Shown: positions 195 to 61,944 of the stretch, in pieces
How the letters are laid out: each line of letters starts with the position of its first letter
Numbering within the stretch: the stretch's first letter is position 1
Source of the DNA: an uncultured bacterium
GTDB lineage: Bacteria > UBP4 > UBA4092
Length of the DNA stretch: 64,000 bases
Assembly: GCA_963768165.1 (NCBI GenBank)
Contig: CAVYHJ010000002.1
Location: 128,676-192,675 of the forward strand
Reading direction: 5' to 3'
Program-made: the position numbers and the translations under genes
The notes under the pieces: model-generated
What the model saw: only the letters and a program-made list of their open reading frames with translations
Databases searched by the model: none
What the model was told of the DNA's origin: nothing

Positions 195-1301
195 TTAATC
201 CGCGAAGAGGGGTCGTTTGTAGCCGAGGAGGCGGGCGTATTGGTCGGGGTGTTGGGAGATAAATTGGGAGATGCGGTCGGCGATTTTCTGAGTGTTGGTG
301 ATAATGTCTTTTTCGGAGTCGCCGGTTACGGTTAGTTCTATGGGAGAGTCAATAATAATTCGGTGGCGGTAACTGGGAGTCAGGCGCAGGGTGTATAACG
401 GCAGGATAGGCGCGCCTTCCCGTAAGGCAATCGCCACGGGACCTTGAGAGAAAGAAGCTTTTCGACCCGCCAGATTAACGAAAACCCTGTTTTTACCACC
501 GGCACCATCTATGGCAATCGCCAAAAGTTCATTGCGTTTTAAACAGCGAAATGCTGGTAATAGGGATTGGCGGAGATAAACGAATTTGGCAGGAAGATTC
601 AGTTCCAGAGTGTGCATTAACTTTAAAACCCGTTCCAACATGGGGGTTGGTAAGGGCATAGTTTCGGTGTCGGGAGAACCACCACCCCCTGCCCCCTCCT
701 TACCTACTGTAGAGACGTAACATGTTACGTCTCTACCGGAGTCAGGGGGAAGGGGGGTGGTTAATTTCTTTTGAATTCCAGAAGACTGTAACGATTCGGG
801 GATGTGGTGTTCGGAATCCATTTCTTCCTTTAAATCTTCGGGCGTCAATCCGACTTGGTTTAAGGGATACCCGCGATAGACCAGAGCGGGCATAAGCATT
901 TGCGCGTTGGCAATATGCGGATGAGCAATGATAACTCCCTTGCCTTTGGCTAAGGCTTGTTTGAGATGTTCTTCTCCAACCAATGCAGTATAAAAATCAA
1001 TCGGTTGTTTCATAAGTTTGGGATACAGCAGGACATCCAACTGATTCCAGAAAAACATGTAGACACCGATTTTAACAATGTGTTGATTTTCCTGTTCCGA
1101 GAGTTGCCGCCCCAAATTCATTTTTGAAAGTTCAGAGCGGATTTTGGTTTTGCGCCGTCCATTAATGAGATAAATAAGCCAAGCCATAAAATCCCCAATT
1201 TTGTATGCCAGAGAAATGGGGATAGCGGACATGAACCAACGAAAGGGATACCAGAATAACCAGCGGGAGAAGTCTTTTAACAATAATTTAAAAAGGTTCA
1301 T
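195..1301 (-). CDS. Lipid A biosynthesis lauroyl/myristoyl acyltransferase-like protein (LpxL/HtrB family). It carries an in-frame insertion of about 30-35 aa encoded by a palindromic element.
   Basis: 368-aa ORF with an N-terminal membrane anchor and an AHPH...acyltransferase core typical of the Lip_A_acyltrans family. It is about 60 aa longer than typical LpxL. The extra segment ([25 protein letters not shown]) is encoded exactly by the 28-bp palindrome and its GC-rich inverted flanks at 678-766. Confidence 0.7.
   Translation of the reverse strand: MNLFKLLLKDFSRWLFWYPFRWFMSAIPISLAYKIGDFMAWLIYLINGRRKTKIRSELSKMNLGRQLSEQENQHIVKIGVYMFFWNQLDVLLYPKLMKQPIDFYTALVGEEHLKQALAKGKGVIIAHPHIANAQMLMPALVYRGYPLNQVGLTPEDLKEEMDSEHHIPESLQSSGIQKKLTTPLPPDSGRDVTCYVSTVGKEGAGGGGSPDTETMPLPTPMLERVLKLMHTLELNLPAKFVYLRQSLLPAFRCLKRNELLAIAIDGAGGKNRVFVNLAGRKASFSQGPVAIALREGAPILPLYTLRLTPSYRHRIIIDSPIELTVTGDSEKDIITNTQKIADRISQFISQHPDQYARLLGYKRPLFAD
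709..736. repeat. Family A perfect 28-bp palindrome GTAGAGACGTAACATGTTACGTCTCTAC, copy 1. It is intragenic and embedded in a longer imperfect inverted repeat spanning about 678-766.
   Basis: Exact palindrome. The flanking arms ACCACCCCCTGCCCCCTCC and GGGGGAAGGGGGGTGGT are mutually inverted. Confidence 0.9.
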
Positions 1302-1329: not shown

Positions 1330-1357
1330 GTAGAGACGTAACATGTTACGTCTCTAC
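1330..1357. repeat. Family A perfect 28-bp palindrome, copy 2, in the intergenic gap between the wzx-like and lpxL-like genes.
   Basis: Identical 28-mer to copy 1. Confidence 0.9.
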
Positions 1358-2892: not shown

Positions 2893-4953
2893 TTACTTCA
2901 CGCCGTTAAGAATCATACCGGTTGGAGTTATCCCTGTTTCCTGCAAAATCGCGTTTGCCTGCTCAACATGTACCGGTCGGGTCATCCCAAACCGTGTAAT
3001 TAAATAGGATTGGTCCGCGGATATTGAAAGTAAGGCGCCAAAACGGGAAACAGTAAGTGCCGGCGTATCAATCAAAATAGCAGGATATTCCTTTTGCAAA
3101 TCGCGCAAGACTGCTGAGAATTTTTCGATATCCCAATTGGAACTGCTTCCGACACGCAGGATGGAAAGATTGGGTACCGCGGTGCCAACAATTTGGTTAC
3201 GCGCTTGTTCAAGGGTCAATGGAACAGGGTTCTCTTTCACCGGGATATTGAATAATGAACCCAGTGCCGGAGAAATTACATTCGCGTCAATCAACAATAC
3301 TTTTTCACCGGACTCCGCACGGATGGTACCCAGCGCGGTGGTAAGGAATGTTTTCCCTTCACCCGGTAAAGCACTGAATAAGGACAAGATAGATTGATTT
3401 TTACCGGCTTTTAATTTCCAATGGGTTACGATTTCCTGTGCTTGCTGACGAGCAGATGGTGATAAAAATCCAGAGGACTGGATATTTCCGCTTACGCTTG
3501 AACTCTGGTTGACAACACCGACAACGGGTATATTGCCAATCCCACGAAGATGTCCGACATGATAAATCCGGTCATCCACATAATCTACAACAAATATCGC
3601 ACCGATGCCAAAGAACAATCCAAGCGCAATAGCAAGAATGAGAACAATCTTTTTCTTTGGAAAATAGATATATGATTTTACGATGGTCTTATCCGTCGGT
3701 ACCGGCGCGGGAGAAAAGAGTGCCAGGTTGTCTGTATTTACATTGAGAAGCGCTTTGGCGGCTTCCAAACTCCCCAGGTATCCTGTGTACGCCGAATTTA
3801 ATATACCGACGACCCTGGTTAAACGGTTATATTCTGTTTCTTTTCTTGATAAATCGTCCAAGCGGGCGACCACAGTATCCAATTGCTCTTTGGAAATTTC
3901 AATAATCGCTTGTTGTGCAATCTCATCCGTTTCCGTGTCACCCAATTCCTGAAGCAAGGTATCGTAATAGGAGTTCCGTGTTTTACTTTCCTGGGAAAAT
4001 ATCTTGTCAATTTGCTCTTTTAATTGCCGGCGGCTGCTTTCGACTTGTTGCTGGTCTGTTTTGACTTGAGGATGTTCCTTGGTATAAATCAACAAATCAC
4101 TGTCCTCTTGTCGCTCATAAGTAAGTAGATTGGCTTTGATATTTTCGATTTGCGGGTTTTCTGCGTAGGTGATGGTACTTAATTTGAACTCCGGTTGCTT
4201 GGCAAGTTGGTCAAGCAGCGCTTTTTTCCTTTTAATATCTACTTGGAGTTGTTTATCCGCGCTATCAATGGTCTGTTCATAACTCACTTGCATGGAAAGT
4301 TCATCCACGCGATAGGTACTCAGATCGGTAACATGTTCCTTTTGCCGAAACGCCAAAGTGGAATCTTCCGCGGCGGTCAGTCTAGCCAACATCTTCGGAA
4401 TTTCTCCCTCAAAAAATTTAATGGCAGTTTGCGCCTTATTTTTGTTGGAAATGACAACTTCCTTGCTAATTTCATCGGCAAAAGTATTGGCAATGTCAGC
4501 CGCTTCTTTGAAATTGGTGGATACTCCATCAATCTCAATAACTTCCGTATTTTCGGTATTGGATATAATGACCCCGCGACCCATGCCGATAATTTTGATG
4601 ATTCCGCCGTTGACAAAATCGGAAGGGGTATATAATTTTCCACTGTGGGTTTTAAGTTGTAAGCGTTCCGCCACCCGTAACATAATCGGATCGCTTTCCG
4701 CGATGGTTAATGCATTGGTGGCAAAGTTATCGGAGTTCAATTTCCCCAAATCGTTGGGAGAACCGCTTACAAATTCCGGGAGATAGTCCTGTTTCATGAC
4801 CAGAAGGTACACTGGAACTTTATAAACTGCACCCACCAATACATACTGATAAACCAGAGAAAATAACAGTGCCGTGAGTATGGTTACCCCGAAAATCCAG
4901 TAGAATAATTTCCTTCGTTGCCAAAATACAATCCAATAACGTCTTAATTCCAT
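2893..4953 (-). CDS. Exopolysaccharide chain-length determinant / tyrosine autokinase (Wzc/GumC/ExoP-like polysaccharide co-polymerase).
   Basis: N-terminal TM, a long coiled-coil periplasmic region, a second TM, and a C-terminal P-loop domain with Walker A LPGEGKT and a D-x-P Walker B-like ILIDTP. Confidence 0.8.
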   Translation of the reverse strand: MELRRYWIVFWQRRKLFYWIFGVTILTALLFSLVYQYVLVGAVYKVPVYLLVMKQDYLPEFVSGSPNDLGKLNSDNFATNALTIAESDPIMLRVAERLQLKTHSGKLYTPSDFVNGGIIKIIGMGRGVIISNTENTEVIEIDGVSTNFKEAADIANTFADEISKEVVISNKNKAQTAIKFFEGEIPKMLARLTAAEDSTLAFRQKEHVTDLSTYRVDELSMQVSYEQTIDSADKQLQVDIKRKKALLDQLAKQPEFKLSTITYAENPQIENIKANLLTYERQEDSDLLIYTKEHPQVKTDQQQVESSRRQLKEQIDKIFSQESKTRNSYYDTLLQELGDTETDEIAQQAIIEISKEQLDTVVARLDDLSRKETEYNRLTRVVGILNSAYTGYLGSLEAAKALLNVNTDNLALFSPAPVPTDKTIVKSYIYFPKKKIVLILAIALGLFFGIGAIFVVDYVDDRIYHVGHLRGIGNIPVVGVVNQSSSVSGNIQSSGFLSPSARQQAQEIVTHWKLKAGKNQSILSLFSALPGEGKTFLTTALGTIRAESGEKVLLIDANVISPALGSLFNIPVKENPVPLTLEQARNQIVGTAVPNLSILRVGSSSNWDIEKFSAVLRDLQKEYPAILIDTPALTVSRFGALLSISADQSYLITRFGMTRPVHVEQANAILQETGITPTGMILNGVK

Positions 4954-19589: not shown

Positions 19590-22403
19590 ATGAGAGACTT
19601 TCTCTACATGGTAGAGAAAGCACAACAAGATAAAAGTAGTCCTCTTAAAATATCATTTTCCCTTCCGCTAATAATTATTCCCAATATTCAGTATATTAGC
19701 ATCCCCATTTCTTTCTCTTTTTATCTCTTATCATCAATCTCTTCAATTATGGGCTGGTGCAGAAAATTAATGATGATAATTTTTAGTTTGTTACTGGTAA
19801 CTCAAGCCAAGACAACTACTAGTGAACCAATCCCCCAACGCGCACCGTTAAATCCCGAATTTATAAAATACCAAGAAGATGTTGCCAAAGGGATTCTCCA
19901 TCCACAATATACGGCGGATGGGCATTATCTAGGTTATATTCCGTCTCCCGTAGATTTATTTTATCTTAAAGGACAAAAGATATTTCAAAATCTCGTTGTG
20001 CCAATGCTCTCATTTCCTTCAACTTACGATCTCCGTACTTATGGAAAAGTATCACCCGTGGAAGCTCAGGAATGTGGGGATTGTTGGATATATGCAACCT
20101 ACGGTTCCTTGGAATCCAACGAGTTAACTGCCGATAAGGCAATTTTCTCCGAAGAACACCTTGATGCTTTCAATGGATTTGATAACGGATGTTGCAATGG
20201 TGGAAATTTTTCGATAACCCAGGCTTATTTGGCGCGATGGAGTGGACCCGTATATGAATCGGATGACCCATACATAAGTTGTAATTCCCCATCAGACCTG
20301 TCATCCTTACCGGCTCGAAAACATGTCCAGGAAGTTGATTGGATTCCTCAAAGAAGTAATTCATTAGACAATGATAATATAAAACTAGCGCTTATGAATT
20401 ATGGAGCGGTGGCCTGTTGTTTTGGGTGGGATAATGCTTATTACAATTCAACGACCTATGCCTATTATTGCGATACGACTGCCGGTTTGGCCGGCCATTG
20501 TGTAACACTCGTGGGATGGGATGATAACTATTCAAGCACTAATTTTGTAACTCCTCCCCCGGGCAATGGTGCATTCCTTATTAAAAACAGTTGGAGTACC
20601 GGTTGGGGCGATAATGGATTCTTCCATATATCCTATTATGACGTAAATGTTGGAGGCTTTACCCTTTTTCGTATGGCGGAGAGTACTACTAATTTTAGTA
20701 ATATTTATCAATATGATCCCTTGGGCCAAACAGCCGGGTATGGTTATGGTTCCTTTACTGGATGGTTTGCTAATATTTTTACAGCGGTTGGTACTGAAAA
20801 GATAACGGCTGTAAGCTTCTATGTGGCTGAACCCAATTCGACTTATACTGTTGCCGTTTATCTGGATCCTACTTCCGGCCCTATCAATAATTCCGGTCCT
20901 GTACTCACAAACTCCAGTACGATTTCCAATCCGGGTTATCAAACAATTAATTTAAGCTCATCTGTATCAGTGAATTCTAGTCAAAGATTTTCTATTGTTG
21001 TTATGCTCAATACTCCCGGTTATTATTGGCCTATTCCTATAGAATCTCAAGACTCGGGTTATAGCAGCGGCGCTACAGCAACGACAGGACAAAGTTATAT
21101 CAGTTCGAATGGATCAAGTTGGACAGATATGACACTAGCTATGCCGAATGCCAACGTATGTTTAAAAGCTTTTTCGTCTTTTACCGAGATATTTATCAAC
21201 GGGTATCTCTTGGATAGTTCCGGCAATCCCCTCAATGGAAGTTATGCCTATGTGGCGGATTGGTATTCCGGGTTACAGATTATCAATATCAGCAATCCTG
21301 CGTCACCGATTTTAACAGGGTCCTATGATGCTACGCTATCCAGTGCCCATGGTGTCGCGGTCAGCGGGAACTATGCCTATGTGGCAGATTATTCTTCTGG
21401 GTTACAGATTATCAATATCAGCAATCCTGCGTCCCCGACTCTGACAGGGTCCTATGCTACGCCGGACTTAGCTTGGAATGTCACAGTGAGTGGAAACTAT
21501 GCCTATGTGGCGGAGGGAGCGGATGATATTTTTTCTGGGTTACAGATTATCAATATCACCAATCCTGCGTCCCCGACTCTAGCAGGGTCCTATGCTACGC
21601 CAAGCTATGCCTATGGTGTCGCGGTGAGTGGGAACTATGCCTATGTAGCGGATTGGAATTCAGGGTTAGAGATTATTAATATCAGCAATCCTACGTCACC
21701 GACTCTAGCGGGGTCCTATGCTACACCGGGTGCCGTAGGTGTCACGGTAAGTGGTAACTCTGCCTATATGGCAGATTATAATTCCGGGTTACAGATTATT
21801 AATATTAGCAATCCTTCTTCTCCGACTCTAGCAGGGCACTATGCTACACCGAGCGATGCCGAAAGTGTTGCGGTGAGTTCAACCTACGCCTATGTGGCGG
21901 AGGATTCCGGGTTACAGATTATTAATATCAGCAATCCTGCTTCCCCGACTCTGGCAGGGTTCTATACTACGTCGGGTATCTGGGGTTGGGGTGTCGCGGT
22001 GAGTGGGAACAATGCCTATGTCGCCGCTGGAAATTTAGAGATTATTAATATCAGCACTGCTTCTTTACCCACTCTGGTCGGTTCCTATGCTACGGGCTAT
22101 GCCGAAAGTGTTGCGGTGAGTGTAGTCACCGCGAGAATCACCATGAGTTTGAGTGGAACTACCTCAGGATCAACCAATGCCGATTCCAATGGATATTACC
22201 AGTTTACCAATTTATCTCTTGGAGGGAATTATACCGTGACTCCCGGCGAAACTCATTATACGTTCAGTCCACCATACCAGACTTACAATTCATTAACTTC
22301 CTACCAGTCTAATCAGAACTTTACAGGAACTATTAGTTTGCCCGCAATCAAAGATTGGATGTTATATTCGACAGAATCTGACTATATGCGTCATAGGTTT
22401 TAG
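19590..22403 (+). CDS. Secreted papain-family (C1A) cysteine peptidase with 8 LVIVD repeats and a C-terminal Cna-B/carboxypeptidase-regulatory-like domain.
   Basis: Catalytic motifs QECGDCWIYA (Cys), HCVTLVGWDD (His) and NSWSTGWGDNGFF (Asn). There are eight repeats of about 40 aa (YAYVAD..SGLQIINISNPASPTL.GSYAT). The signal peptide starts at the internal Met 19749, so the true start may be 19749 rather than 19590, although 19590 has the AAAGGGGA RBS. The C-terminal tail reads KDWMLYSTESDYMRHRF. Confidence 0.8.
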   Translation: MRDFLYMVEKAQQDKSSPLKISFSLPLIIIPNIQYISIPISFSFYLLSSISSIMGWCRKLMMIIFSLLLVTQAKTTTSEPIPQRAPLNPEFIKYQEDVAKGILHPQYTADGHYLGYIPSPVDLFYLKGQKIFQNLVVPMLSFPSTYDLRTYGKVSPVEAQECGDCWIYATYGSLESNELTADKAIFSEEHLDAFNGFDNGCCNGGNFSITQAYLARWSGPVYESDDPYISCNSPSDLSSLPARKHVQEVDWIPQRSNSLDNDNIKLALMNYGAVACCFGWDNAYYNSTTYAYYCDTTAGLAGHCVTLVGWDDNYSSTNFVTPPPGNGAFLIKNSWSTGWGDNGFFHISYYDVNVGGFTLFRMAESTTNFSNIYQYDPLGQTAGYGYGSFTGWFANIFTAVGTEKITAVSFYVAEPNSTYTVAVYLDPTSGPINNSGPVLTNSSTISNPGYQTINLSSSVSVNSSQRFSIVVMLNTPGYYWPIPIESQDSGYSSGATATTGQSYISSNGSSWTDMTLAMPNANVCLKAFSSFTEIFINGYLLDSSGNPLNGSYAYVADWYSGLQIINISNPASPILTGSYDATLSSAHGVAVSGNYAYVADYSSGLQIINISNPASPTLTGSYATPDLAWNVTVSGNYAYVAEGADDIFSGLQIINITNPASPTLAGSYATPSYAYGVAVSGNYAYVADWNSGLEIINISNPTSPTLAGSYATPGAVGVTVSGNSAYMADYNSGLQIINISNPSSPTLAGHYATPSDAESVAVSSTYAYVAEDSGLQIINISNPASPTLAGFYTTSGIWGWGVAVSGNNAYVAAGNLEIINISTASLPTLVGSYATGYAESVAVSVVTARITMSLSGTTSGSTNADSNGYYQFTNLSLGGNYTVTPGETHYTFSPPYQTYNSLTSYQSNQNFTGTISLPAIKDWMLYSTESDYMRHRF
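21243..22125 (+). repeat. Intragenic tandem DNA repeats of about 120 bp that encode the LVIVD repeats.
   Basis: GGGTTACAGATTATCAATATCAGCAATCCTGCGTC(A/C)CCGACTCT recurs at high identity about 8 times. Confidence 0.8.
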
Positions 22404-24728: not shown

Positions 24729-25787
24729 ATGATGAGCTGTGCCCAACGACGAGTTATAATTCCTTCCTGTTTTCTCATCGTCCTATTTTTATCCGTCTCC
24801 GGTCATAGCGATTCTTTCACTCCTGTCTGGCAAAAAGGCATGTCTTATGTCCCCTGGAGTTGGAGTATCCTATCCACCACGGATTCAAATTCTTCCATCC
24901 AGATAATGTCTTCTGATTCAATCCAATGGGTCGCCCTGTGCGATTTTTGGTTTCAAGCCAATGGGTCATCCACAACCATCGGTCCGGATGAGTCACGATA
25001 TAGTGCCAGCACCGAATCGATTAAATATGCCATCGATCAAATTCATGCCAATGGAATGAAAGTCATGTTAAAACCTATGGTAGATTTGGATAATGGAGTT
25101 TGGCGCGCGTATATCACACCTTCCAATGATTGGTTTTCCAGTTACTCCGCCTATATCCAGTTTTGGTCAGACCTGGCCACTGAGAAAAATGTGGATATGC
25201 TTTGTATCGGATGTGAATTTAAAGATACCCAATCTTGGGATTCCAGTTGGCGCATGATCGCCGCCACCGCTCGCGCTCATTATTCCGGACCCATTACTTA
25301 TGCTGCCAATCATGACGATTTTAACTATGTCACGTGGTGGGATGCGGTAGATTATATTGGGATTGATGCTTATTTTGCTTTAACCAATACGGATACACCC
25401 ACCCTCGAACAACTCTCCTCCGCATGGGATAACACAGCAAATTTCATTGAATCTTTCCGGAATTCCAACTTTCCTACAGAACAGGTAGTGTTTACAGAAA
25501 TCGGGTATCAAAGCGAGGATGGAACCAATGAAACCCCTTGGAATACGACCGGGGGTGCCGTTGATACCGCCGAACAACAACAGTGTTATGAAGCGTGTTT
25601 TGAAGTCATGACTCAGCGAAATTGGTTTGATGGTATGTATTGGTGGAACTGGGAAACCAGCCCTACTGCCGGTGGACCAAATGATAACGGGTTTACTCCC
25701 CAAAACAAACCTGCGGAAGCTACAGTAAAATTGTGGTATTCCAAAACCATCCCTTTGGTTCCTGTTGATGATTGGTATAAGTATTAG
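24729..25787 (+). CDS. Secreted putative glycoside hydrolase, clan GH-A-like TIM barrel (paralog 1 of 3).
   Basis: Signal peptide. Candidate acid/base Glu in the motif CIGCEF and nucleophile Glu in VFTEIGY. The WRMIAATARAHY motif is conserved across all three tandem paralogs. Assignment to a GH family is an inference. Confidence 0.5.
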   Translation: MMSCAQRRVIIPSCFLIVLFLSVSGHSDSFTPVWQKGMSYVPWSWSILSTTDSNSSIQIMSSDSIQWVALCDFWFQANGSSTTIGPDESRYSASTESIKYAIDQIHANGMKVMLKPMVDLDNGVWRAYITPSNDWFSSYSAYIQFWSDLATEKNVDMLCIGCEFKDTQSWDSSWRMIAATARAHYSGPITYAANHDDFNYVTWWDAVDYIGIDAYFALTNTDTPTLEQLSSAWDNTANFIESFRNSNFPTEQVVFTEIGYQSEDGTNETPWNTTGGAVDTAEQQQCYEACFEVMTQRNWFDGMYWWNWETSPTAGGPNDNGFTPQNKPAEATVKLWYSKTIPLVPVDDWYKY

Positions 25788-25864
25788 AAAACCAAACACC
25801 GAGATATATCCTTTATCGTAATTTCCTATTCCCTTTTGTTCCTGTTATAATAATTTCCGCAGTT

Positions 25865-26905
25865 ATGAAATCAGCCGCGCGTAACATTACTCTCATCTCC
25901 ATTCTTTTAGTAATCCTTTTTATATCCAGTTCCAGCCAAGCCACATCTTTTCAACCTGTTTGGCAAAAAGGGGTATCCTACGTTGCCTACCGCTGGGCAA
26001 TGCTCACAACAACAACTTCAGATTCTTCGATTCAAATGATGGCATCCGATTCAGTCAATTGGGTTGCCTTGTGTATCAGTTGGATACAGGATAATGAAAC
26101 CACCACCATTAAATTTCCCGATGATAATAATTTACAAGCACAAACTAAAGCAATCAAATGTGCCGTCGACCGATTCCATGCCAAACATATTAATGTCATG
26201 TTAAAACCCATGATTAACTTGCGAAACCACAAATGGCGTGCTGCTATTGAACCATCGAATGCCTGGTTCTCCAGTTATTCTTCCTACATTCAGTTTTGGT
26301 CAAAACTGGCAACCCAGCAACATGCCGAAGCGCTGTGTATCGGTTGTGAATTCAGAAACACCCAGCCCTGGGATTCTAGTTGGCGGATGATTGCGGCGAC
26401 TGCTCGTGCCCATTATAAAGGACCCCTAACCTATGCGCCGAATTGGGATGACTATACCACCGTCAAGTGGTGGGATGCCGTGGATTATATCGGCATTGAT
26501 GCCTACTTTCCTTTGACGACAACCGTCCATCCAACGCTTTCCGAATTGTCTTCCGGATGGGCCCTTCAAGCGGATAATATTGAATCGTGGCGTAATGCCA
26601 ATTACCCTACCCGGCCCGTCATCTTCACTGAAATTGGATATTGCAGCGCCGACAGCACCAACATAACCCCGTGGGAAGGGCGGCTGGGTGACACCAACCC
26701 CAATATACAACGCGATTGTTACGATGCCTGTCTGGAAGTCATGACGCAAAGAAAATGGTTCTACGGAATCTATTGGTGGAGTTGGGAAATTAATCCAAAC
26801 GCCGGGGGAATACAAGATCACGGGTTCTCCCCGCAAAATAAACCGGCGGAAACTGTATTGAAGACTTGGTATTCCAAATCTTTACCTTTGACGAACATAA
26901 AATAA
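25865..26905 (+). CDS. Secreted putative GH-A-like glycoside hydrolase (paralog 2 of 3).
   Basis: About 55-60% identical by eye to paralog 1, with the same GCEF and FTEIGY motifs. Confidence 0.5.
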   Translation: MKSAARNITLISILLVILFISSSSQATSFQPVWQKGVSYVAYRWAMLTTTTSDSSIQMMASDSVNWVALCISWIQDNETTTIKFPDDNNLQAQTKAIKCAVDRFHAKHINVMLKPMINLRNHKWRAAIEPSNAWFSSYSSYIQFWSKLATQQHAEALCIGCEFRNTQPWDSSWRMIAATARAHYKGPLTYAPNWDDYTTVKWWDAVDYIGIDAYFPLTTTVHPTLSELSSGWALQADNIESWRNANYPTRPVIFTEIGYCSADSTNITPWEGRLGDTNPNIQRDCYDACLEVMTQRKWFYGIYWWSWEINPNAGGIQDHGFSPQNKPAETVLKTWYSKSLPLTNIK

Positions 26906-26974
26906 TTTTTTATTCTATTTTAGGAATCATCACCATTCATTCACATTACAAAACAACAAAGGGGACAATTTTTT

Positions 26975-28048
26975 ATGACGAATAAATACTTTAGATACGC
27001 CTGTGAACTTATCATACTGTTCTCATTTTTTGTCGGAACATACCCGCATGGACAAGCCGCTTCTTCAAATCCTGTTTTCCAAAAAGGGGTCTCTTACATC
27101 GGTTGGAAATGGGACGAGTTAACCTCTGCTGAATCCAATGGCGCTATCCAGCAAATGGCGGATGACTCCGTGAAATGGGTCGCGTTATGTGACTTTTGGT
27201 TTCAAGATGGTGCTAATGCCGTCACGATTTATTCGGATTCAACGAGACATAGTACCAGTACACCATCCCTTAAATATGCCATCCGCCAACTTCACGCACA
27301 CGGTCTTAAAGTCATGTTGAAACCTATGGTTGATTTAACCACCGGGTGGTGGCGCGCATCCATTCAGCCGTCTAATGAATGGTTTTCAAGTTATTCTTCT
27401 TATATCCAATTTTGGTCTGAGTTTTCAAAAGAAAATAACGTGGATATGTTATGCCTGGGTTGTGAATATAAACGTACTCAGTCTTGGGATTCCAGTTGGC
27501 GAATGATTGCAGCAACTGCCCGGTCTCATTTTAAAGGACCCCTCACTTATGCAGCCAACTGGGATGATTACACTACAGTCACTTGGTGGGATACTGTGGA
27601 TTATATCGGCATTGATGCATATTTCCCGTTATCCACCACCGAAAATCTAACTTTATCCGACTTGTCAGCATCTTGGTCTGCGAAAGCTGACACGATTGAA
27701 TCCTGGTTATACTCTTATTATTCCACCAAACCGGTCATCTTTACGGAGATCGGTTACCAAAATCGGAAGAACTCCTATATACGTCCGGCTTCTTATAGGT
27801 CGAGAAATGCAGTGGTCGACAATACCATTCAACAAAACTGTTACCAGGCCAGTTTTGATGTCTTGACGAAACGTCCCTGGTTTTCTGGTTTTTATTGGTG
27901 GCAGTGGGATACCAGTTCCACTTCCGGCGGACCTGATACCGTTTCTTTTACTCCTCAAAATAAACCGGCAGAAACAACTCTACGGGCATGGTATTCCAAG
28001 ACTCTTCCCCTGACTCAGAATACCCTAAAAACCAAGAATTCCAAATAA
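26975..28048 (+). CDS. Secreted putative GH-A-like glycoside hydrolase (paralog 3 of 3).
   Basis: Same conserved motifs (LGCEY, FTEIGY, WRMIAATARSHF). Confidence 0.5.
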   Translation: MTNKYFRYACELIILFSFFVGTYPHGQAASSNPVFQKGVSYIGWKWDELTSAESNGAIQQMADDSVKWVALCDFWFQDGANAVTIYSDSTRHSTSTPSLKYAIRQLHAHGLKVMLKPMVDLTTGWWRASIQPSNEWFSSYSSYIQFWSEFSKENNVDMLCLGCEYKRTQSWDSSWRMIAATARSHFKGPLTYAANWDDYTTVTWWDTVDYIGIDAYFPLSTTENLTLSDLSASWSAKADTIESWLYSYYSTKPVIFTEIGYQNRKNSYIRPASYRSRNAVVDNTIQQNCYQASFDVLTKRPWFSGFYWWQWDTSSTSGGPDTVSFTPQNKPAETTLRAWYSKTLPLTQNTLKTKNSK

Positions 28049-28942: not shown

Positions 28943-29062
28943 TACGGTAAATACAAGTTTAAATAGCAATTTATATTCGAAAATGAAGCGAGGCTAAAGT
29001 GGAGGGGGACTGGAATTGAAAAAAGCAATTCCAGTCCCCCTCCGTAACCAAATCGGTATAAA

Positions 29063-30515: not shown

Positions 30516-33500
30516 TTGCATTTAAATTTCCGAGGAGCGTGTTTCATATTTAGCAAAAGTTATCTTATCCTAGCAACAGTTCTTTTGTTCTCAACAGTTA
30601 GTTTGGTTTATGCGGGAAGTCCGTTGGACGGCATACAATGTAAACCGCCGGTACATATTGTCCATCGCCCTGTGGGTATTCAACCATTCACCGGTCCTGA
30701 TACAACAGCTCTATCCCCGTCCCAAGTCCGCGCGGCGTATAGCCTGCCTTCCACGGGGGGAAGAGGTACCATTGCGATTATTGATGCCTATGCTGATCCC
30801 AGTATTCAAAATGATTTCAATACATTTAGTTTGCAATATGGGTTACCTACCGCAACAGCCGCCAATTTTGAAATCCATGCGATGAGTACCACCATTGAAA
30901 ATGCTACTACATATGGTTGGAATGGGGAAGAATGCCTGGATACCCAATGGGCTCATGCCATCGCGCCCAATGCCAAAATATTGTTCGTGGAATGCATCAA
31001 TAATGGCACCGATTTATTGGCCGGGGTAATCTATGCCGCAAGCAGGTCGGATGTCGTGGCCATTTCCATGAGTTGGGGTCAGCCGGAATTTTCTGGTGAA
31101 AATATATATGATAGTTATTTTGTTAGTAATTATACTGCCACTTTCTTTGCCGGAACAGGAGACAGTGGAGCAGGCACCATTTGGCCGTCAGTTTCCCCCA
31201 ATGTAACCGCCGTCGGAGGGACGAATCTGTTTTTTAATTCCCTGGGTCAAGTTACCGCGGAAATAGCTTGGAGCGGTAGCGGTGGCGGGTTAAGCCAGTA
31301 TGAACCAGAATCAAGTTATCAAACCGGTTATGGTGTTCCCTCGACGAATGGATTCCGAGCAGTCCCGGATGTCTCTTATAATGGGGGCGGGGATTCTTAT
31401 GTTTCGGTCTATGACAGTTATCAAGAGGGTTGGATCGGCGTCTACGGAACCAGTGCCGGTGGCCCGCAATGGGCGGCTATCCGAGCTTTGGGCGGGAGTA
31501 ATATAAACAATACTTACCTTTATTCGCAAGCATCGTCCCCAGCTACATACGCCGCCGATTTCCGCGATATTACCAGCGGAAGTAACGGAACATGCGGATT
31601 TTATTGCAACGCTACCATTGGATACGACTATGTAACAGGACTAGGCAGTCCGCTGGGTAATGGATTGTTATCCATTGCAACTTCTCCAGTAGCAGGATTT
31701 TATGGTACTCCCACGATTGGGAACGCACCGCTGACAGTTGATTTTACAGATACCTCCGCCAATTATCCTAATTCGTGGAACTGGAGTTTTGGGGATGGGA
31801 GCACTTCCATTTCACAAAATCCATCGCATCTATATATGACAACGACTGAGGCTTTCTATACGGTTCAACTTATTGTGACCAATTCAGTAGGTACCAGCAC
31901 CTCCGCCCGGATAAATTATATTCATGCTTTGCCGCCACTGCCTCCGAGTGCGGGTTTCTATGCCAATCCTACGAATGGAGCAAGTCCGCTGGTTGTGAAT
32001 TTCATGGATACGTCTGCCAACAATCCGACAAATTGGACATGGACTTTTAGTGACGGGAGTACCGATTATTCACAAAATCCCATTCATACCTTTTACGCAT
32101 CCAATTCAACGGTTTATTATAGTGTTGGACTCGCAGTCAGCAGTCCGTATGGGTCAAGCTCCATTGTGCAATCAAATTATATAACGGTAGTGCCTGCGCC
32201 GACGATTGTTGTTCTGCCTACTTTCTTCAATAAGACGGTACAGCAGGGAACGATTACGTATGATTATCTGACCATTCAAAACACGGCAACGAACGGGACA
32301 ACTCTCAACTGGTCTATTTCTGAAAGTGTGACGAGTACTTTTAATAGAGTCGCGCAAAGTGGGAAAGAAAATTCCGTTGTTATTCAACTTCCGCAAAATA
32401 GCAAAGACTCGAATCCCAACCAATATACCGGTCCTCTTATACCGAGTGCCAATCCCGCCGCTTCAGACGGCGGATGGCAATATCAAACGGGATTGAATAA
32501 TGCTCGAAGCCGTGCCGCTGCTGGAACAGTGAATGGAAAAATTTATATTATTGGTGGATGGAGTTATCTCGGATCTACTATAACAAATAGTGTGGAAATG
32601 TTTGATCCCAACACCAAGCTTTGGACAACTAAAGCCAATAAACCCACAGCTGTTGCCAATATCGGATGCGGTGTGATTGGCAATAAAATATATGTTCCCG
32701 CAGGATTTGATTCCACTTTCAACCATTCAAATGTATTGGAGATTTACGATACTCAATTTGATTCATGGACAACCGGTTCACCGGTTCCTGTCGCAGTTTC
32801 CGGCGCGGCGGTTGCGGTTGTGAACAATAAATTATATGTGATGGGTGGCAACACGGAATCCGGTGAAACTAATTCGGTATATGAATATGACCCAGTGGGA
32901 GATAGCTGGTCGCAAATATCTTCCATGAACTATGCCTGCGGATATCTTGGCGCGGCAGTGGTAAACAATGAGATTTATGCGGTGGGCGGTTGGGATAACA
33001 ATAACCTAAATATGGCTTATTGTGAACAATATAATCCAACGAATGGTACTTGGACAATCGAAACACCCATGAACCTTGCGAGGGGAGATTTGGGGGTATG
33101 CTCTGATGGTTACTATATTTATGCCATTGGTGGAGGTGGTATTTGGACGAATTTCACCAGCGTTGTTGAACGATTTGATCCAAATATAGACACCTGGGTG
33201 ATGTCTACTGGTGTCGTACCTTTCTTAAACGTAGCTCGAAATGCGTTGAGTGTAGCTGTGAATAATGGAACGATTTATGCGATTGCTGGCTGGAACGGGA
33301 GTGCTTTAACAACCAATGAAGTATTAAGCGTAGATGTTCTCAATTGGCTGGATGAAAATCCCAATTTCGGTTCCACCAACAACGAAGGTGGATTTAGCCT
33401 TGTGACCGTAACATTTGATGCTACAAACTTACCCGAAGGAAGTACCACAGGTTGGATAGGAATTATTAATAACGACCCGAACAATAACCCTGTGATTATC

Positions 33501-33617
33501 CCTGTGAATCTAACCGTTACCCTGCCTGGAGTTAACGATTGGATGCAATATGCGAGAGATTTGCAAAATACCACTATACAGGTTCGTGTGCCGGAAGAAA
33601 TACGGAAGAACGAGTAG
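30516..33617 (+). CDS. Secreted S53 (sedolisin)/S8-like serine peptidase with two PKD domains, a six-blade Kelch beta-propeller and a conserved C-terminal tail.
   Basis: Sedolisin-like motifs: EE.LD..WAHAIAP.AKI (Glu/Asp) and GTSAGGPQWAAI (Ser). Two PKD repeats (PLTVDFTDTS..WNWSFGDGS). Six Kelch repeats (GKIYIIGGW, NKLYVMGG and similar). The C-terminus reads DWMQYARDLQNTTIQVRVPEEIRKNE. The start codon is uncertain: the track start 30516 is TTG, and the position homologous to the paralog-3 start is ATA 30546, downstream of a GAGGAG RBS. Confidence 0.75.
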   Translation: MHLNFRGACFIFSKSYLILATVLLFSTVSLVYAGSPLDGIQCKPPVHIVHRPVGIQPFTGPDTTALSPSQVRAAYSLPSTGGRGTIAIIDAYADPSIQNDFNTFSLQYGLPTATAANFEIHAMSTTIENATTYGWNGEECLDTQWAHAIAPNAKILFVECINNGTDLLAGVIYAASRSDVVAISMSWGQPEFSGENIYDSYFVSNYTATFFAGTGDSGAGTIWPSVSPNVTAVGGTNLFFNSLGQVTAEIAWSGSGGGLSQYEPESSYQTGYGVPSTNGFRAVPDVSYNGGGDSYVSVYDSYQEGWIGVYGTSAGGPQWAAIRALGGSNINNTYLYSQASSPATYAADFRDITSGSNGTCGFYCNATIGYDYVTGLGSPLGNGLLSIATSPVAGFYGTPTIGNAPLTVDFTDTSANYPNSWNWSFGDGSTSISQNPSHLYMTTTEAFYTVQLIVTNSVGTSTSARINYIHALPPLPPSAGFYANPTNGASPLVVNFMDTSANNPTNWTWTFSDGSTDYSQNPIHTFYASNSTVYYSVGLAVSSPYGSSSIVQSNYITVVPAPTIVVLPTFFNKTVQQGTITYDYLTIQNTATNGTTLNWSISESVTSTFNRVAQSGKENSVVIQLPQNSKDSNPNQYTGPLIPSANPAASDGGWQYQTGLNNARSRAAAGTVNGKIYIIGGWSYLGSTITNSVEMFDPNTKLWTTKANKPTAVANIGCGVIGNKIYVPAGFDSTFNHSNVLEIYDTQFDSWTTGSPVPVAVSGAAVAVVNNKLYVMGGNTESGETNSVYEYDPVGDSWSQISSMNYACGYLGAAVVNNEIYAVGGWDNNNLNMAYCEQYNPTNGTWTIETPMNLARGDLGVCSDGYYIYAIGGGGIWTNFTSVVERFDPNIDTWVMSTGVVPFLNVARNALSVAVNNGTIYAIAGWNGSALTTNEVLSVDVLNWLDENPNFGSTNNEGGFSLVTVTFDATNLPEGSTTGWIGIINNDPNNNPVIIPVNLTVTLPGVNDWMQYARDLQNTTIQVRVPEEIRKNE

Positions 33618-33638
33618 TTAATTGTGTTTGCCGGTTCC

Positions 33639-33693
33639 CCCAAATGCTTAAATCCAAAATCAAAGCCGCGATACATGTCATGGCGGAGATATA
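33639..33693 (+). pseudogene. Stub of the 3' end of the B12-radical SAM gene (encodes MLKSKIKAAIHVMAEI*).
   Basis: About 80% nucleotide identity to 30421-30475. The differences are almost all synonymous. Confidence 0.7.
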
Positions 33694-33704
33694 GTATTTT
33701 TTTG

Positions 33705-33733
33705 TTGACTTGTCCTCAGAAACGACCTACAAT
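33705..33733 (+). promoter_or_regulatory. Sigma70-like promoter for peptidase paralog 2 (TTGACT, 17-bp spacer, TACAAT).
   Basis: Read from the sequence. Confidence 0.5.
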
Positions 33734-33785
33734 TTTATCTAACAAAAACGGATTATTGAAGGGTAAATTTTAAAGAGAGCGAGTT

Positions 33786-35027
33786 ATGCACCCTAGGAAA
33801 TCCATAATTTTAATTGTCTCCCTTTGCGCCATCATAACCATTGTCACACAGAGCGTAGTATCTGCCCAAAGTCCCTCGTCGGGACGTCCGATGTATCCTC
33901 CGATACATTGGGTTGATTTGGGACCGATTCAACCGTTAGCCGTTTCTCCGCCATTCAATCCCGCCACCATTCGTGCGGTGTATCAGTTACCGACGACCGG
34001 CGGGTCGGGAACCATAGCCATTATTGATGCCTATGATGATCCCAGTATCATGCACGATTATTATACTTTTTGTACGACCTTTGGACTGCCGACCGCAACA
34101 TCTTCTAATTTTGAATTGCACAAAATGAGTTCCAATATTACAACGGATAATACCGGCAGTTGGGAAGGTGAAGAAGCACTGGATGTCGAATGGGCGCACG
34201 CCATCGCCCCGGAAGCCAAAATCTTGTTTGTGGAATGCACCTCGAATGATAACAATGATTTATTGGCGGGAGTCACCTATGCCGCTAATAGGTCGGATGT
34301 GGTCGCAATATCCATGAGCTGGGGCGGCGAGGAAATCGCCAGCAATACCACATTGGATTCCTATTTTATCAGTCCTTATGGAGCGACTTTTTTCGCCTCC
34401 TCAGGGGATGATGGAACGGAAGTCCAATGGCCCGCGGTCTCGGTCAATGTGGTTGGTGTCGGCGGGACTCAGTTGAGTATAACGTCCACGACTACAGAAA
34501 TCGCATGGAGTGGGAGCGGCGGAGGGTTAAGTAAATATGAAAAGGAACCCTCTTATCAAACAAGTTATGGGGTTCATTCCACCCAAGGGTTCCGCGCAGT
34601 CCCTGATGTTTCATATAATGCTTCCCCTAATTCTTCTGTTTTAGCCTACAACACGTTTATGTATACAGGATGGGGCGGGGGTTCTGGAACTAGTGCCGGG
34701 TCTCCGCAATGGGCGGCGATTCGGGCATTGGGCGGAAGTAATATCAATCACACGTATCTTTATTCTCAGGCAACATCGCCGACAACCTATGCGAAAGATT
34801 TTCGGGATATTACCTCCGGCTATAATGGTCCAGGAGGGTTTTATGAAACAGCAACGACAGGATACGATTATATCACCGGATTGGGAAGTCCCTTGGGCGG
34901 AGGATTATTACCCTCGGTCGCCGTCGAGGATTGGATGTTTTATTCGGAGGATTTACAAAATACTCCTATGCCGATTCACCTGCCAAAAATCACTACCCAC
35001 CCTGAAGGAATAAAAAAGGATGAGTAA
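33786..35027 (+). CDS. Secreted S53/S8-like serine peptidase, paralog 2 (catalytic domain only), with a conserved C-terminal tail.
   Basis: Signal peptide and the same catalytic motifs (EEALDVEWAHAIAPEAKI, GTSAGSPQWAAI). The C-terminus reads VEDWMFYSEDLQNTPMPIHLPKITTHPEGIKKDE. Confidence 0.75.
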   Translation: MHPRKSIILIVSLCAIITIVTQSVVSAQSPSSGRPMYPPIHWVDLGPIQPLAVSPPFNPATIRAVYQLPTTGGSGTIAIIDAYDDPSIMHDYYTFCTTFGLPTATSSNFELHKMSSNITTDNTGSWEGEEALDVEWAHAIAPEAKILFVECTSNDNNDLLAGVTYAANRSDVVAISMSWGGEEIASNTTLDSYFISPYGATFFASSGDDGTEVQWPAVSVNVVGVGGTQLSITSTTTEIAWSGSGGGLSKYEKEPSYQTSYGVHSTQGFRAVPDVSYNASPNSSVLAYNTFMYTGWGGGSGTSAGSPQWAAIRALGGSNINHTYLYSQATSPTTYAKDFRDITSGYNGPGGFYETATTGYDYITGLGSPLGGGLLPSVAVEDWMFYSEDLQNTPMPIHLPKITTHPEGIKKDE

Positions 35028-35100
35028 GGTAATTGGAAAAAAAATCCAAAGCAATATGAAAAGGAATAAAGGGTAGCCATACTTAGGAAACATCTCATAC

Positions 35101-35252
35101 CCGAAGATTTGGTGAAAGGACAGAAAATAGCGATGCGGGCGTTTTATTTCCGTCCCGGCAAGGTAATGCAGGAACTCAAACGTGCGTTCTCCTCCCCTAA
35201 CATGTTTAAATCCAAAGTCAAAGCCGCCATACACGTGATGGCGGAAATCTAA
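35101..35252 (+). pseudogene. Stub of the 3' end of the B12-radical SAM gene (about 50 codons: ...EDLVKGQKIAMRAFYFRPGKVMQELKRAFSSPNMFKSKVKAAIHVMAEI*).
   Basis: About 85% nucleotide identity to 30325-30475. The amino-acid sequence is nearly identical, with mostly third-position changes. Confidence 0.75.
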
Positions 35253-35260
35253 TTTTTTTG

Positions 35261-35289
35261 TTGCCTAACCCAAGAAAACGTACTATACT
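35261..35289 (+). promoter_or_regulatory. Sigma70-like promoter for peptidase paralog 3 (TTGCCT, 17-bp spacer, TATACT).
   Basis: Read from the sequence. Confidence 0.45.
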
Positions 35290-35298
35290 TTTATAGAG

Positions 35299-39843: not shown

Positions 39844-41151
<1,308 letters not shown>

Positions 41152-54663: not shown

Positions 54664-54839
54664 TGATTGGATGTTAAATTTAGTATAAGATGAAATTAGT
54701 TTGGGTGTGGAAATAGTTTAAAAGTGATTAAAAAGGGTAGTTTTGAGGGGTTTTTGTAAAAAAGCTACCTGCTCTCCTCGATAAGGACATTCGAGGACAA
54801 GTTTACAGTTTCAATCTAATCAATCCTCTATAAGGCAGG

Positions 54840-54865
54840 GATGAAGGAGATCGATCTCCTTCATC
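54840..54865. repeat. Perfect 26-bp palindrome GATGAAGGAGATCGATCTCCTTCATC.
   Basis: Exact reverse-complement symmetry. Confidence 0.9.
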
Positions 54866-54910
54866 CCAACTCCGCTTCATCTCCGTTTCTCCTCCGTTTC
54901 AAGTACGCTT

Positions 54911-56597: not shown

Positions 56598-56602
56598 AAT
56601 TT

Positions 56603-56697
56603 TGTCATTACGAGCGCAGCGAAGTAATCTCGTTTTTATTTTCTATTGACGCTTTAGAATGAGATTGCTTCGTCGCTACGCTCCTCGCAATGACAAA
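56603..56697. mobile_element. MITE-like element family F, copy 1 (about 95 bp). Termini TGTCATTACGAGCGCAGCGAAG...CTTCGTCGCTACGCTCCTCGCAATGACAAA form an imperfect inverted repeat.
   Basis: It fills the whole gap between the MCM start and the GIY-YIG stop. Homologous copies lie at 56999-57093 and 57592-57705. Confidence 0.55.
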
Positions 56698-56988: not shown

Positions 56989-56998
56989 AGCAACTGTT

Positions 56999-57093
56999 TG
57001 TCATTACGAGCGCAGCGAAGTAATCTCGCATTTATCATCCATCATCACTTTAGAACGAGATTGCTTCATCGCTGCGCTCCTCGCAATGACAAA
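56999..57093. mobile_element. MITE-like element family F, copy 2.
   Basis: TGTCATTACGAGCGCAGCGAAGTAATCTCG...CGAGATTGCTTCATCGCTGCGCTCCTCGCAATGACAAA. A short terminal fragment CGCAATGACAAAA also occurs at 57137-57150. Confidence 0.55.
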
Positions 57094-61119: not shown

Positions 61120-61920
61120 ATGTTTGCAAAAATAATTACCGGATTTTTCTGGGACAGTTACGACAATTTGGGAAAGCTCTTAGTGGCGAATTTGGTTTGG
61201 TTTTTGTGTAACCTGCCAGGATTTATGTTGGGGTATGGGATATTTCATATACCCTTGAATCTATTTTGGATTTTTCTACTGCTCCCGTTTGCGTTATTTT
61301 CTGTTACCACTATGGGGCTGTATCATTTCACATCTCTCCTTGTAGAACAAAAGCAAATTGGAGTAAAAGAATTATTTCTCGGCATGAAAAAATACGGCGT
61401 GAGAGGAACTTTATACTCCTGTGTGCTTGTTTTGGGATTTTTTGTTTTATTGGTCAATATCGATTTTTATCTGAATCTATCGTTAGGATTTCACTGGATT
61501 GGCGCGATACTAGGGGGATTTGCTTTTTGGGTCAGTTTATTTATATTATTGGTTTGTCAATATTTTTTCCCGATATTAGTCAAACAGGATTTACCGATTA
61601 AAAAACTGTTATTGCGCTCCTCTCTTTTGGTTTTGGACAATTTCGGAATTAGCCTGTTGATTGCATTGAACTCACTGGGATTATTGATATTGACCATCAT
61701 AACCGGCGTAGGACCGATCCTGTTTACCATGTCTTTGTTTACCTTATTTGCCAACAACGCATTATATGAAGTACTGGCGAAATATGATAAACAACCGCAA
61801 CCGACCTTAAAACCGGGAGAGAAACCAACATCCTGGCATCAAATTTTGCCTAAAGAAAAGCCCAAATGGCGACATGAAAATCGAGGTTGGAAAGATATCT
61901 TACGACCTTGGGATATGTAG
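61120..61920 (+). CDS. Hypothetical integral membrane protein (about 6 TM helices; DUF624/YesL-like, uncertain).
   Basis: Hydrophobic helices only. Its stop codon TAG lies inside the family A palindrome. Confidence 0.45.
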   Translation: MFAKIITGFFWDSYDNLGKLLVANLVWFLCNLPGFMLGYGIFHIPLNLFWIFLLLPFALFSVTTMGLYHFTSLLVEQKQIGVKELFLGMKKYGVRGTLYSCVLVLGFFVLLVNIDFYLNLSLGFHWIGAILGGFAFWVSLFILLVCQYFFPILVKQDLPIKKLLLRSSLLVLDNFGISLLIALNSLGLLILTIITGVGPILFTMSLFTLFANNALYEVLAKYDKQPQPTLKPGEKPTSWHQILPKEKPKWRHENRGWKDILRPWDM

Positions 61921-61944
61921 AGACGTAACATATTACGTCTCTAC
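61917..61944. repeat. Family A palindrome, copy 4 (GTAGAGACGTAACATATTACGTCTCTAC, with one central mismatch). It supplies the stop codon of the upstream gene and is followed by TTATTG.
   Basis: 27 of 28 positions match the other copies. Confidence 0.85.

Follow-up and report, generated by a model that had tools for sequence, protein, structure and literature searches.

The window analyzed here was a 64,000-nt (64-kb) stretch of contig CAVYHJ010000002.1 from an uncultured bacterium of the UBP4 lineage. Near its start, a gene on the minus strand (195..1301) encoded a membrane-associated acyltransferase of 368 amino acids (aa), which belonged to the Lip_A_acyltrans family and had a PatA/LpxM fold. 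The upstream neighbor, in the window and in the orthologous loci, was a gene for a Wzx-like flippase (Polysacc_synt/MatE). The exact 28-bp perfect palindrome GTAGAGACGTAACATGTTACGTCTCTAC lay inside the acyltransferase gene at 709–736, between GC-rich inverted arms. Further exact copies were located at 1330–1357 and 39844–39871, and a copy with one mismatch at 61917–61944. None of 100 dinucleotide-preserving shuffles of the window gave any match to the 28-mer, so no copy was expected by chance. All four copies opened with a 5′ GTAG and closed with a 3′ CTAC, and the 28-mer formed a hairpin with a 12-bp stem and a 4-nt loop (z −4.6 to −5.9 compared with shuffles). The segment 678–766 is, with good probability, a two-layer nested insertion, in which a repetitive extragenic palindromic (REP) sequence of the kind associated with REP-associated tyrosine transposases (RAYTs) sits at the apex of a hairpin within a variable, disordered loop of the enzyme.

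The acyltransferase and its loop

The open reading frame (ORF) was open over all 368 aa and read through the palindrome, which was translated in frame as G189 followed by RDVTCYVST up to residue 198, and 155 codons were intact downstream of the insert. The first-pass annotation, made from the letters alone, had described a perfect palindrome with GC-rich inverted flanks inside a coding sequence that stayed open, and this description was confirmed: the palindrome was exact, the arms were 81–92% complementary and the frame was kept. The same annotation had estimated the protein to be about 60 aa longer than a typical LpxL, which was an overstatement. Proteins of its own subfamily were 319–343 aa long, and the excess of the window protein was 20 aa over P0002 and 30 aa over P0003–P0005. 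An exact look-up of the acyltransferase returned no record.

The protein matched PF03279 (Lip_A_acyltrans) with an E value of 1.7e-21 in two stretches that were split by the loop segment. A profile built from the protein and 19 homologs matched the structures of PatA (phosphatidylinositol mannoside acyltransferase) and LpxM with E values of about 1e-14. The AlphaFold2 model obtained with the same alignment had a mean predicted local distance difference test score (pLDDT) of 84.5 and a predicted template modeling score of 0.81, and a Foldseek search with this model retrieved LpxM (5KNK, E 7.5e-12) and PatA (E 3e-11), both with a probability of 1.00. The pLDDT was higher than 90 for most residues, and it fell below 50 in a short stretch (162–165) and at residues 173–213. 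The latter segment, encoded at 663..785 on the minus strand, was the predicted disordered loop that holds the composite insert, and it lay exactly between the conserved blocks 'IPESLQ' and 'MPxPTPML'. An alignment to homologs had been proposed for placing the insertion, and it put the insertion between these two blocks. The loop stands between the catalytic-His region and the following helix.

The length of this loop varied widely within the family. It was 42 aa in the window protein, 22 aa in P0002 (83% identical), about 12 aa in the orthologs of 63% identity, and 8–25 aa in more distant ones. PatA had no residues at this position, and the subfamily of the window protein was thus already loop-expanded relative to PatA.

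The ratio of nonsynonymous to synonymous substitution (dN/dS) relative to the ortholog at locus L054 was 0.093 upstream of the insert (codons 1–166) and 0.047 downstream of it (codons 217–368), with a dS of about 0.7. Strong purifying selection on both halves makes a long-standing pseudogene unlikely, and the gene still looks functional. The suggestion of a pseudogenized protein was therefore not upheld for an old event, the ORF being intact and the dN/dS being 0.05 after the insert. It is a different matter whether a very recent insertion has inactivated the enzyme, as a nascent pseudogene whose stops have not yet accrued, or whether the mRNA hairpin of −53 kcal/mol blocks translation. The intragenic copy has kept its perfect symmetry and does not differ from other copies, and may thus be young, the predicted mRNA hairpin is very stable, and the dN/dS values average over a divergence that probably long predates the 28-mer. 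We nevertheless regard this explanation as quite unlikely. The ORF continued intact for 155 codons past an insert that occupied the only open frame of the palindrome, and the insert fell in a disordered loop whose length is variable across the family. Moreover, the ortholog functions with the 22-aa version of the loop under the same selective constraint, and in-frame REPs are common both in RAYT genes and in other genes, with no apparent loss.

Of the three reading frames of the 28-mer, one was open (RDVTCYVS) and the other two carried stops (VET-stop and stop-RRN). Because two of the three frames hold stops, an intragenic copy can survive only in the RDVTCYVS frame, with a length that preserves the frame and where the loop tolerates it. 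For the enzyme, the insert is in all probability a neutral passenger sequence, and no evidence was obtained of an enzymatic role for the ten extra residues.

The designation 'LpxL-like' held only at the family level. The match to PF03279 and the LpxM/PatA fold agreed with it, whereas the catalytic motif and the genomic neighborhood did not. In place of the H-x4-D/E motif the window protein had HIANAQ, and its 16 closest homologs had H(F/S)GNPQ, with Gln instead of the acidic residue; the Asp of PatA aligned to the Gln of the window protein. The more distant members P0019 and P0020 had HFGNWE. Furthermore, no lpx genes were seen next to the acyltransferase, so that no association with lipid A or Kdo genes was apparent. 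Since Gln replaces the acidic residue of H-x4-D/E and the gene always stands next to a Wzx-like flippase, the Gln-motif acyltransferases may represent a distinct, uncharacterized subfamily rather than LpxL.

The nested layers of the insert and the other copies in the window

The palindrome was framed by a left GC-rich arm with a 9–12-nt spacer (678..708) and a right GC-rich arm with its spacer (737..766). On the coding strand, the former encoded the Gly-rich side (GKEGAGGGG) and the latter the Pro-rich side (TTPLPPDS). Positions 681–696 and 746–761 were 81% complementary, and positions 685–697 and 744–756 were 92% complementary. Arms and 28-mer together folded as a compound hairpin with −27.6 kcal/mol as DNA (z −5.3) and −53.4 kcal/mol as RNA (z −5.6). 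When the 28-mer was removed in silico, the arms still folded as a hairpin, and the loop of this hairpin was the insertion point of the 28-mer. No direct duplications of a target site were found at the borders of the 89-bp composite.

The closest ortholog (locus L054, 83% identical) had no 28-mer but carried a GC-rich inverted repeat in the same loop. Its left arm started with the same ACCACCCCC as that of the window, its arm homologous to window 678–708 was GGAGGGGGCA(A/G)GGGGTGGT, and its right arm, GGAGGGGGCAAGGGGTGGT, was one base different from GGAGGGGGCAGGGGGTGGT of the window. The orthologs of 63% identity (L055–L057) had neither the arms nor the 28-mer. Accordingly, two layers can be separated. 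The GC-rich inverted repeat appears to be the older layer, common to two lineages that have diverged to a dS of about 0.7, and the 28-mer appears to be a separate unit that was nested at the apex of the GC-rich hairpin.

The first-pass annotation had named, as one of two readings, the tolerated insertion of a MITE (miniature inverted-repeat transposable element) into a surface loop. Repeat DNA, the kept frame and the low-pLDDT loop agreed with this; the single MITE did not, the arms being unique within the window and present without the 28-mer in the ortholog. The idea that the whole 89-bp unit, GC-rich terminal inverted repeats (TIRs) and palindromic core together, is one MITE that entered in a single event is nonetheless worth weighing. 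The arms and the core do fold into a single long compound hairpin, another genome (L024) has the 14-mer CCACCCCCTGCCCC of the arm 3 nt from a copy of the 28-mer, and termite-type metagenomes do carry the 28-mer within a MITE of about 135 bp. However, the arms occurred once within the window, and its three other copies and about 150 external copies of the 28-mer had no such arms. G/C runs were not enriched beside the 28-mer (3 of 154 sites, or 1.9%, against a background of 3.2%), the closest ortholog had the arms without the core, and the GC motif of L024 was in the opposite orientation relative to the 28-mer. A single MITE is therefore quite unlikely. The GC-rich arms were also considered as a second repeat family or as a regular partner of the 28-mer, and this candidate was rejected, with one distant 14-mer match (L024) and no enrichment.

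A native, lineage-specific Pro/Gly-rich linker, palindromic through the complementarity of Pro (CCN) and Gly (GGN) codons and free of any insertion, is very unlikely for the segment as a whole. In its favor, the arms code for a Pro-rich stretch followed by a Gly-rich one, the family shows intrinsic variation in this loop, and a mobile-element origin of the arms could not be shown. Against it, the 28-mer was the same as the extragenic copies of the window and of many phyla, and orthologs at 63% identity or less had neither arms nor core. The arms taken by themselves may be the decayed remnant of an older repeat or a Pro/Gly linker that evolves fast, the latter being possible because of this complementarity of the codons. 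Two comparisons with homologs had been proposed for distinguishing an insertion from a native loop. The first gave a mixed result: no homolog had the same extra segment, although the closest one had a part of it, the GC-rich arms. Orthologs of 63% identity were free of both the arms and the 28-mer, although a clean empty site was not obtained, the interior of the loop being different in L054.

The three extragenic copies were in positions typical of REPs, 0–25 nt from the 3′ ends of genes. Like the intragenic copy, which sat at the apex of the outer hairpin, they were recorded without strand, as were the arms. The second copy (1330..1357) stood in a 66-bp spacer between the stop of the Wzx-like flippase gene (1368) and the start of the acyltransferase gene (1301), 10 nt past the former. 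The two genes directly adjoin each other in L054 (TAAATG) and are separated by 2 nt in L055, and the spacer is for this reason regarded as an insertion. The third copy (39844..39871) was found between metK (stop 39818) and ahcY (start 39895), 25 nt after the former and 23 nt before the latter, and it passed a simple scan for terminator-like patterns. In the relatives L153 and L154, with MetK proteins of 79% and 77% identity, the same slot held unrelated GC-rich hairpins. Furthermore, an independent 3.4-kb Logan unitig with the window's own metK, the one other record of this gene, terminated inside this palindrome, which is how a de Bruijn graph behaves when it meets a repeat. Named MetK homologs, from Nitrospirota and Latescibacterota, were no more than 66–68% identical. 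The fourth copy (61917..61944), with its single mismatch (G to A) in the loop, lay exactly between the stops of two convergent genes, and its GTAG supplied the TAG stop of ORF 61120–61920. The 28-mer was absent from the relatives at all three of the comparable orthologous positions, and no GTAG palindrome was found in about 36 kb of the relatives' DNA. A scan of the whole window with Rfam gave no family at the gathering threshold.

Distribution of the 28-mer and its association with RAYT genes

The exact 28-mer was found in 53 stretches of GTDB species-representative genomes and on 95 metagenome contigs (about 150 sites), in at least nine phylum-level groups. The groups sharing the identical sequence were Cyanobacteria, Bacteroidota, Chloroflexota, Calditrichota, Patescibacteria, Marinimicrobia, FCPU426, Proteobacteria and unclassified lineages. 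Among the carriers, going by record titles, were Calothrix, Scytonematopsis and Dulcicalothrix, Anaerolineae and other Chloroflexi, several families of Bacteroidota, Calditrichia, Patescibacteria, the candidate division FCPU426 and Neomarinimicrobiota, as well as one metagenome-assembled genome (MAG) of Thiotrichaceae, one 'Deltaproteobacteria' MAG and unclassified MAGs. No exact copy was present in the IMG/VR viral contigs and no match in the PLSDB plasmids, and hence no phage or plasmid vector was found. The flanks of the 28-mer were unrelated between loci. The neighboring genes were ordinary and diverse, and most copies lay within about 35 nt of the 3′ end of a gene. A Pfam enrichment test on 102 ORFs flanking the 28-mer in the GTDB genomes revealed no transposase or other family beyond orthologous sites.

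The bases immediately outside the 28-mer showed a preference for T...A. At 14 of 90 non-redundant sites, the 28-mer was centered in a locus-specific perfect palindrome that extended 4–18 bp on each side, compared with 0.88 expected under a shuffled-pairing null (maximum 5 in 3000 shuffles). The preference of the 28-mer for the apex of other palindromes is thus statistically supported. Nesting was frequent, and the intragenic copy of the window, lodged at the tip of its GC-rich hairpin, conforms to this tendency.

Several loci had unusual arrangements. At L145:1-64, the 28-mer and 18-bp perfect inverted flanks made up a 64-bp perfect palindrome. At L014:4770-4840, tandem 15-nt half-copies preceded a full copy (GTAAAGACGTAACAT-GTAGAGACGTAACAT-28-mer), at L113:320-400 one copy was inserted near the center of another, and at L049:11-290 four copies of the variant GTAGAGACGCGATTAATCGCGTCTCTAC were spaced by 84 nt. 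These four arrangements hint at hairpin-centered insertion or slippage. Two related, termite-type metagenomes had the 28-mer inside a MITE that was about 135 bp long and bore imperfect repeats of about 29 bp at its ends. About 20 copies of this MITE, on contigs with the prefixes Ga0099364_ and JGI24702J35022_ (among L058–L152), had the 28-mer at a fixed internal position; examples are L061:5700-5900 and L099:5600-5800, and the consensus was TAAGGAGCATGGATAAAATAATTTCCTCAATTCAT, the 28-mer and GAGGYGTGGTACAYGATTCAAGTGATGCCGACCCAAAATGAGGATGTTATTTTGAAAGTATTCCTTA. In the organism bearing this MITE, the REP was thus being multiplied along with another element that carries it.

Besides the window copy, one more clear case of a copy in frame within a gene was found at L031:6101-7999, in an Anaerolineae ORF for a membrane protein of more than 630 aa, where it was read in the same frame. 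This ORF, present also in L092 and L102, had no Pfam hit, and the same loci held a related 36-bp palindrome, AGCAGCAGGGACGCAACATGTTGCGTCCCTGCTGCT. The palindrome of the window contained GAGACG...CGTCTC, which we take to be two inverted, outward-cutting Type IIS sites of the BsmBI/Esp3I type (the shared GTCTC being of the BsmAI type), and one variant in L008 had GAGACC...GGTCTC, presumably of the BsaI type. GTAG palindromes with other stems, such as GTAGGGGCATGCC... in L024, were without the GAGACG/CGTCTC sites, and the sites may be a coincidence of the conserved GAGAC stem.

The association with RAYT genes was seen in other genomes that carry the exact 28-mer. A scan for HUH/Y1 motifs in all ORFs of the fetched loci gave two candidates, L052 and L116, and a third, L155, came from the homolog search. 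These three ORFs (L052:4117-4722, L116:2061-2534 and L155:67-648), in loci of Bacteroidia type, had the motifs MPNH[FLW]H, WQ and YIxxN. In the Bacteroidia ORF of L052 these were MPNHFHAIV, AWQTRFHD and YIENNVARW; it contained three GTAG...CTAC palindromes in frame, one being the exact 28-mer (4451–4478), and in addition a copy with one mismatch stood just upstream. In L116, a variant palindrome directly followed the HUH motif (GRDVACYVST), and the exact 28-mer stood about 15 nt past the stop. The ORF of L155, from a Tannerella MAG, had the exact 28-mer inside and was flanked on both sides by the variant GTAGAGACGTATCGCGATACGTCTCTAC; it was recognized by the 65% identity of its protein P0152 to the L052 protein and by the motifs alone. 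The exact 28-mer thus lay inside or beside a RAYT-like gene in all three genomes. The ORFs of L052 and L116 matched the NCBIfam model NF047646, 'REP-associated tyrosine transposase', with E values from 1e-12 to 3e-16. For Pfam Y1_Tnp, with its cutoff of 23 bits, L116 scored above the cutoff (25.6 bits) and the L052 protein without its inserts below it (20.1 bits), and a faint match to the TnpA_REP of E. coli (4ER8) was observed. The family comprised 3833 proteins with E values up to 1e-5, and JGI had given many of these the name RayT. Among the 120 best homologs, 99 carried one to four palindrome-encoded peptides (RDxxxxVST or, from another frame, ETxxxxSLQ), which sat at two recurrent positions around the HUH motif.

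These features correspond to a described class. According to Quentin et al. (2018, PMC6006769), TnpA_REP subclass 2.4, equivalent to group 4 of the RAYTs of Bertels, has the motifs NH[IFV]H, WQ and YIxNNP, abounds in Cyanobacteria and Bacteroidetes and is scattered elsewhere in a manner consistent with horizontal transfer. Its REPs are described there as 'double foot', with GT[AG]G at the 5′ end and C[TC]AC at the 3′ end, and in-frame REPs within tnpA_REP genes as a feature unique to this subclass. Bertels et al. (2017, PMC5581495) record group 4 in only 61 species from 17 classes, with flanking 16-mers of modest copy number. The 28-mer had the double-foot ends GTAG and CTAC as defined in PMC6006769, and its hairpin conformed to the rule given there (fully paired basal stem of 7–20 nt, loop of 2–5 nt). 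It was also dispersed within the genome, with four copies in 64 kb, three of them extragenic. Judged by its ends and its fold, the 28-mer is a double-foot REP of the subclass 2.4/group 4 type. It belongs to the GTAGAGAC...GTCTCTAC family, whose palindromes occur alongside and within the RAYT/TnpA_REP genes of subclass 2.4.

The nested insertion may then have arisen as follows. A GC-rich inverted repeat would have been acquired in the loop before the split from the closest sampled relative, and the 28-bp double-foot REP would later have been placed at the apex of its hairpin. A cognate HUH-Y1 RAYT, encoded elsewhere in the genome, would recognize the GTAG-footed hairpin in single-stranded DNA, cleave and rejoin the DNA, and so seed new copies, preferably where the DNA already forms a hairpin. 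Selection would filter these copies, most of which would persist just downstream of genes; the extragenic ones may be kept as terminator-like hairpins or hairpins at mRNA ends. The intragenic copy would have survived through the single open frame of the palindrome, a total insert that preserved the frame, and a loop tolerant of length. We infer RAYT-mediated insertion for this genome from the association seen elsewhere.

Several points weigh against this account. No RAYT gene was detected in the 64-kb window, either among the 20 mid-size ORFs scanned or by the HUH/Y motif scan of all ORFs. The RAYT-like ORFs scored 48–60 bits, below the curated (equivalog) cutoff of 80 in NCBIfam, and their placement in subclass 2.4 follows from motifs and behavior, not phylogeny. 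The comparison with L054 gave no clean empty site for the intragenic copy; as the loop interior of the window has nothing in common with that of L054, the latter may, formally, have lost the 28-mer. Relative to L054, the insertion at 1330 amounted to 66 bp, not 28 bp. In addition, the dN/dS mainly validates the older GC-rich layer, the divergence being probably much older than the 28-mer. Finally, RAYT-driven transposition of REPs lacks in vivo demonstration for any family, and the mechanism of REP dissemination is called poorly understood in the abstract of PMC8266576.

The window contained other repeats. Two further strong hairpins were unrelated to the REP. One, at 29001–29043, was GGAGGGGGACTGGAATTG-AAAAAAG-CAATTCCAGTCCCCCTCC, with an 18-bp stem, just after an ORF ending at 28942; the other, at 54838–54867, was the 30-bp perfect palindrome GGGATGAAGGAGATCGATCTCCTTCATCCC. 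A 96-aa GIY-YIG ORF (56698–56988, minus strand; PF01541, E 2e-17) was bracketed by another short repeat, TTTGTCATTACGAGCGCAGCGAAG, with direct copies at 56591–56624 and 56997–57020 and an inverted copy at 57681–57714. Its neighbors were genes for methylmalonyl-CoA mutase, a glyoxalase-family protein and a CoA-transferase. The region 56591–57714 looks like a second small mobile module, unrelated to the palindrome. Internal repeats and paralogs were also present at 21222–22122, 24729–28048, 30516–36570 and 62718–63941. They comprised tandem repeats of 123–138 nt inside a 937-aa ORF, three paralogous genes in tandem (each of about 350 aa), segments of roughly 170 nt common to three large ORFs, and a 407-aa ORF with repeats of 168–192 nt. 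All of them reflect repeats within proteins or paralogy and have no relation to the palindrome.

Wider meaning and comparison with known systems

The REP might preferentially take up the apex of pre-existing hairpins, namely other repeats, MITEs, its own copies and hairpins at terminator positions. One group-4 RAYT-REP pair might then spread between phyla as a unit and home to hairpin loops in DNA, where it would overwrite terminators and now and then a coding loop, but this generalization is speculative and we hold it to be doubtful at present. If it were true, the spread between phyla would contrast with the vertically inherited, lineage-specific picture of RAYTs and REPINs that comes from Proteobacteria, and homing to the apex would be a concrete target rule for REP insertion. 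The identity of the REP across phyla and its apex preference are more interesting by-products of this analysis and are worth systematic study. For annotation, peptides of the 'RDVTCYVST' type in proteins of many phyla are read-through of REPs and not protein motifs. As regards the enzyme, the case points to a loop after the catalytic-His region that tolerates at least 30 extra residues, and such a loop could serve in the engineering or tagging of acyltransferases with the PatA/LpxM fold. The locus is also a compact example of the less studied group-4 double-foot REPs, with four copies in 64 kb that include a nested intragenic one, one that supplies a stop and one in a terminator slot.

A literature search with longer fragments of the 28-mer and with the peptide RDVTCYVST gave no match, and nine-mers gave primer noise only; none of the papers searched contained this particular 28-mer. 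The small dispersed repeats (SDRs) of heterocystous cyanobacteria, reportedly described by Elhai et al. in 2008, are said to be dispersed sequences of 21–27 nt nested in MITEs, in palindromic HIP1 sites and in their own copies, and to have been proposed to move via RNA intermediates, not RAYTs. Compared by description only, the 28-mer is similar to SDRs in being nested in a GC-rich inverted repeat and in a MITE, and in standing beside its own half-copies. Rickettsia palindromic elements (RPEs), which Ogata et al. reportedly described in 2000, are said to be inserted in frame in protein-coding genes; they have no sequence relation to the 28-mer of the window. The 28-mer also resembles MITEs such as Nezha, NEMIS and ERIC, which are small and non-autonomous, form hairpins and in some cases are co-transcribed or translated in frame. 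Unlike MITEs, it lacks TIRs that can be told apart from its body, a target-site duplication and a related insertion sequence transposase, and the 89-bp composite was not repeated.

The closest likeness was with two groups of REPs. Like the double-foot REPs of subclass 2.4, the palindrome occurs in frame inside RAYT genes and flanking them, in modest copy number per genome and in multiple phyla; unlike the systems described, no cognate RAYT was present in this 64-kb window. One REP sequence identical across at least nine phylum-level groups, and an apex preference, are not stated in the accessible portions of PMC6006769 and PMC5581495. Di Nocera et al. (2013, PMC3733652) reported intragenic REPs of the GTAG type and TAG stop codons that are provided by the ends of REPs. 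Like these intragenic GTAG/CGTC REPs and the RPEs, the palindrome is a short repeat read in frame that adds about 10–30 residues. The provision of TAG stops by its termini and the location of most copies between unidirectional and convergent genes also agree with PMC3733652. However, the tag of classical GTAG REPs is unpaired and at one end, whereas that of the 28-mer is paired and at both ends, and the host here is an envelope acyltransferase, whereas PMC3733652 emphasizes genes of DNA repair and replication. The case is thus an event of a known kind, the in-frame insertion of a double-foot REP into a gene, rather than a new system.

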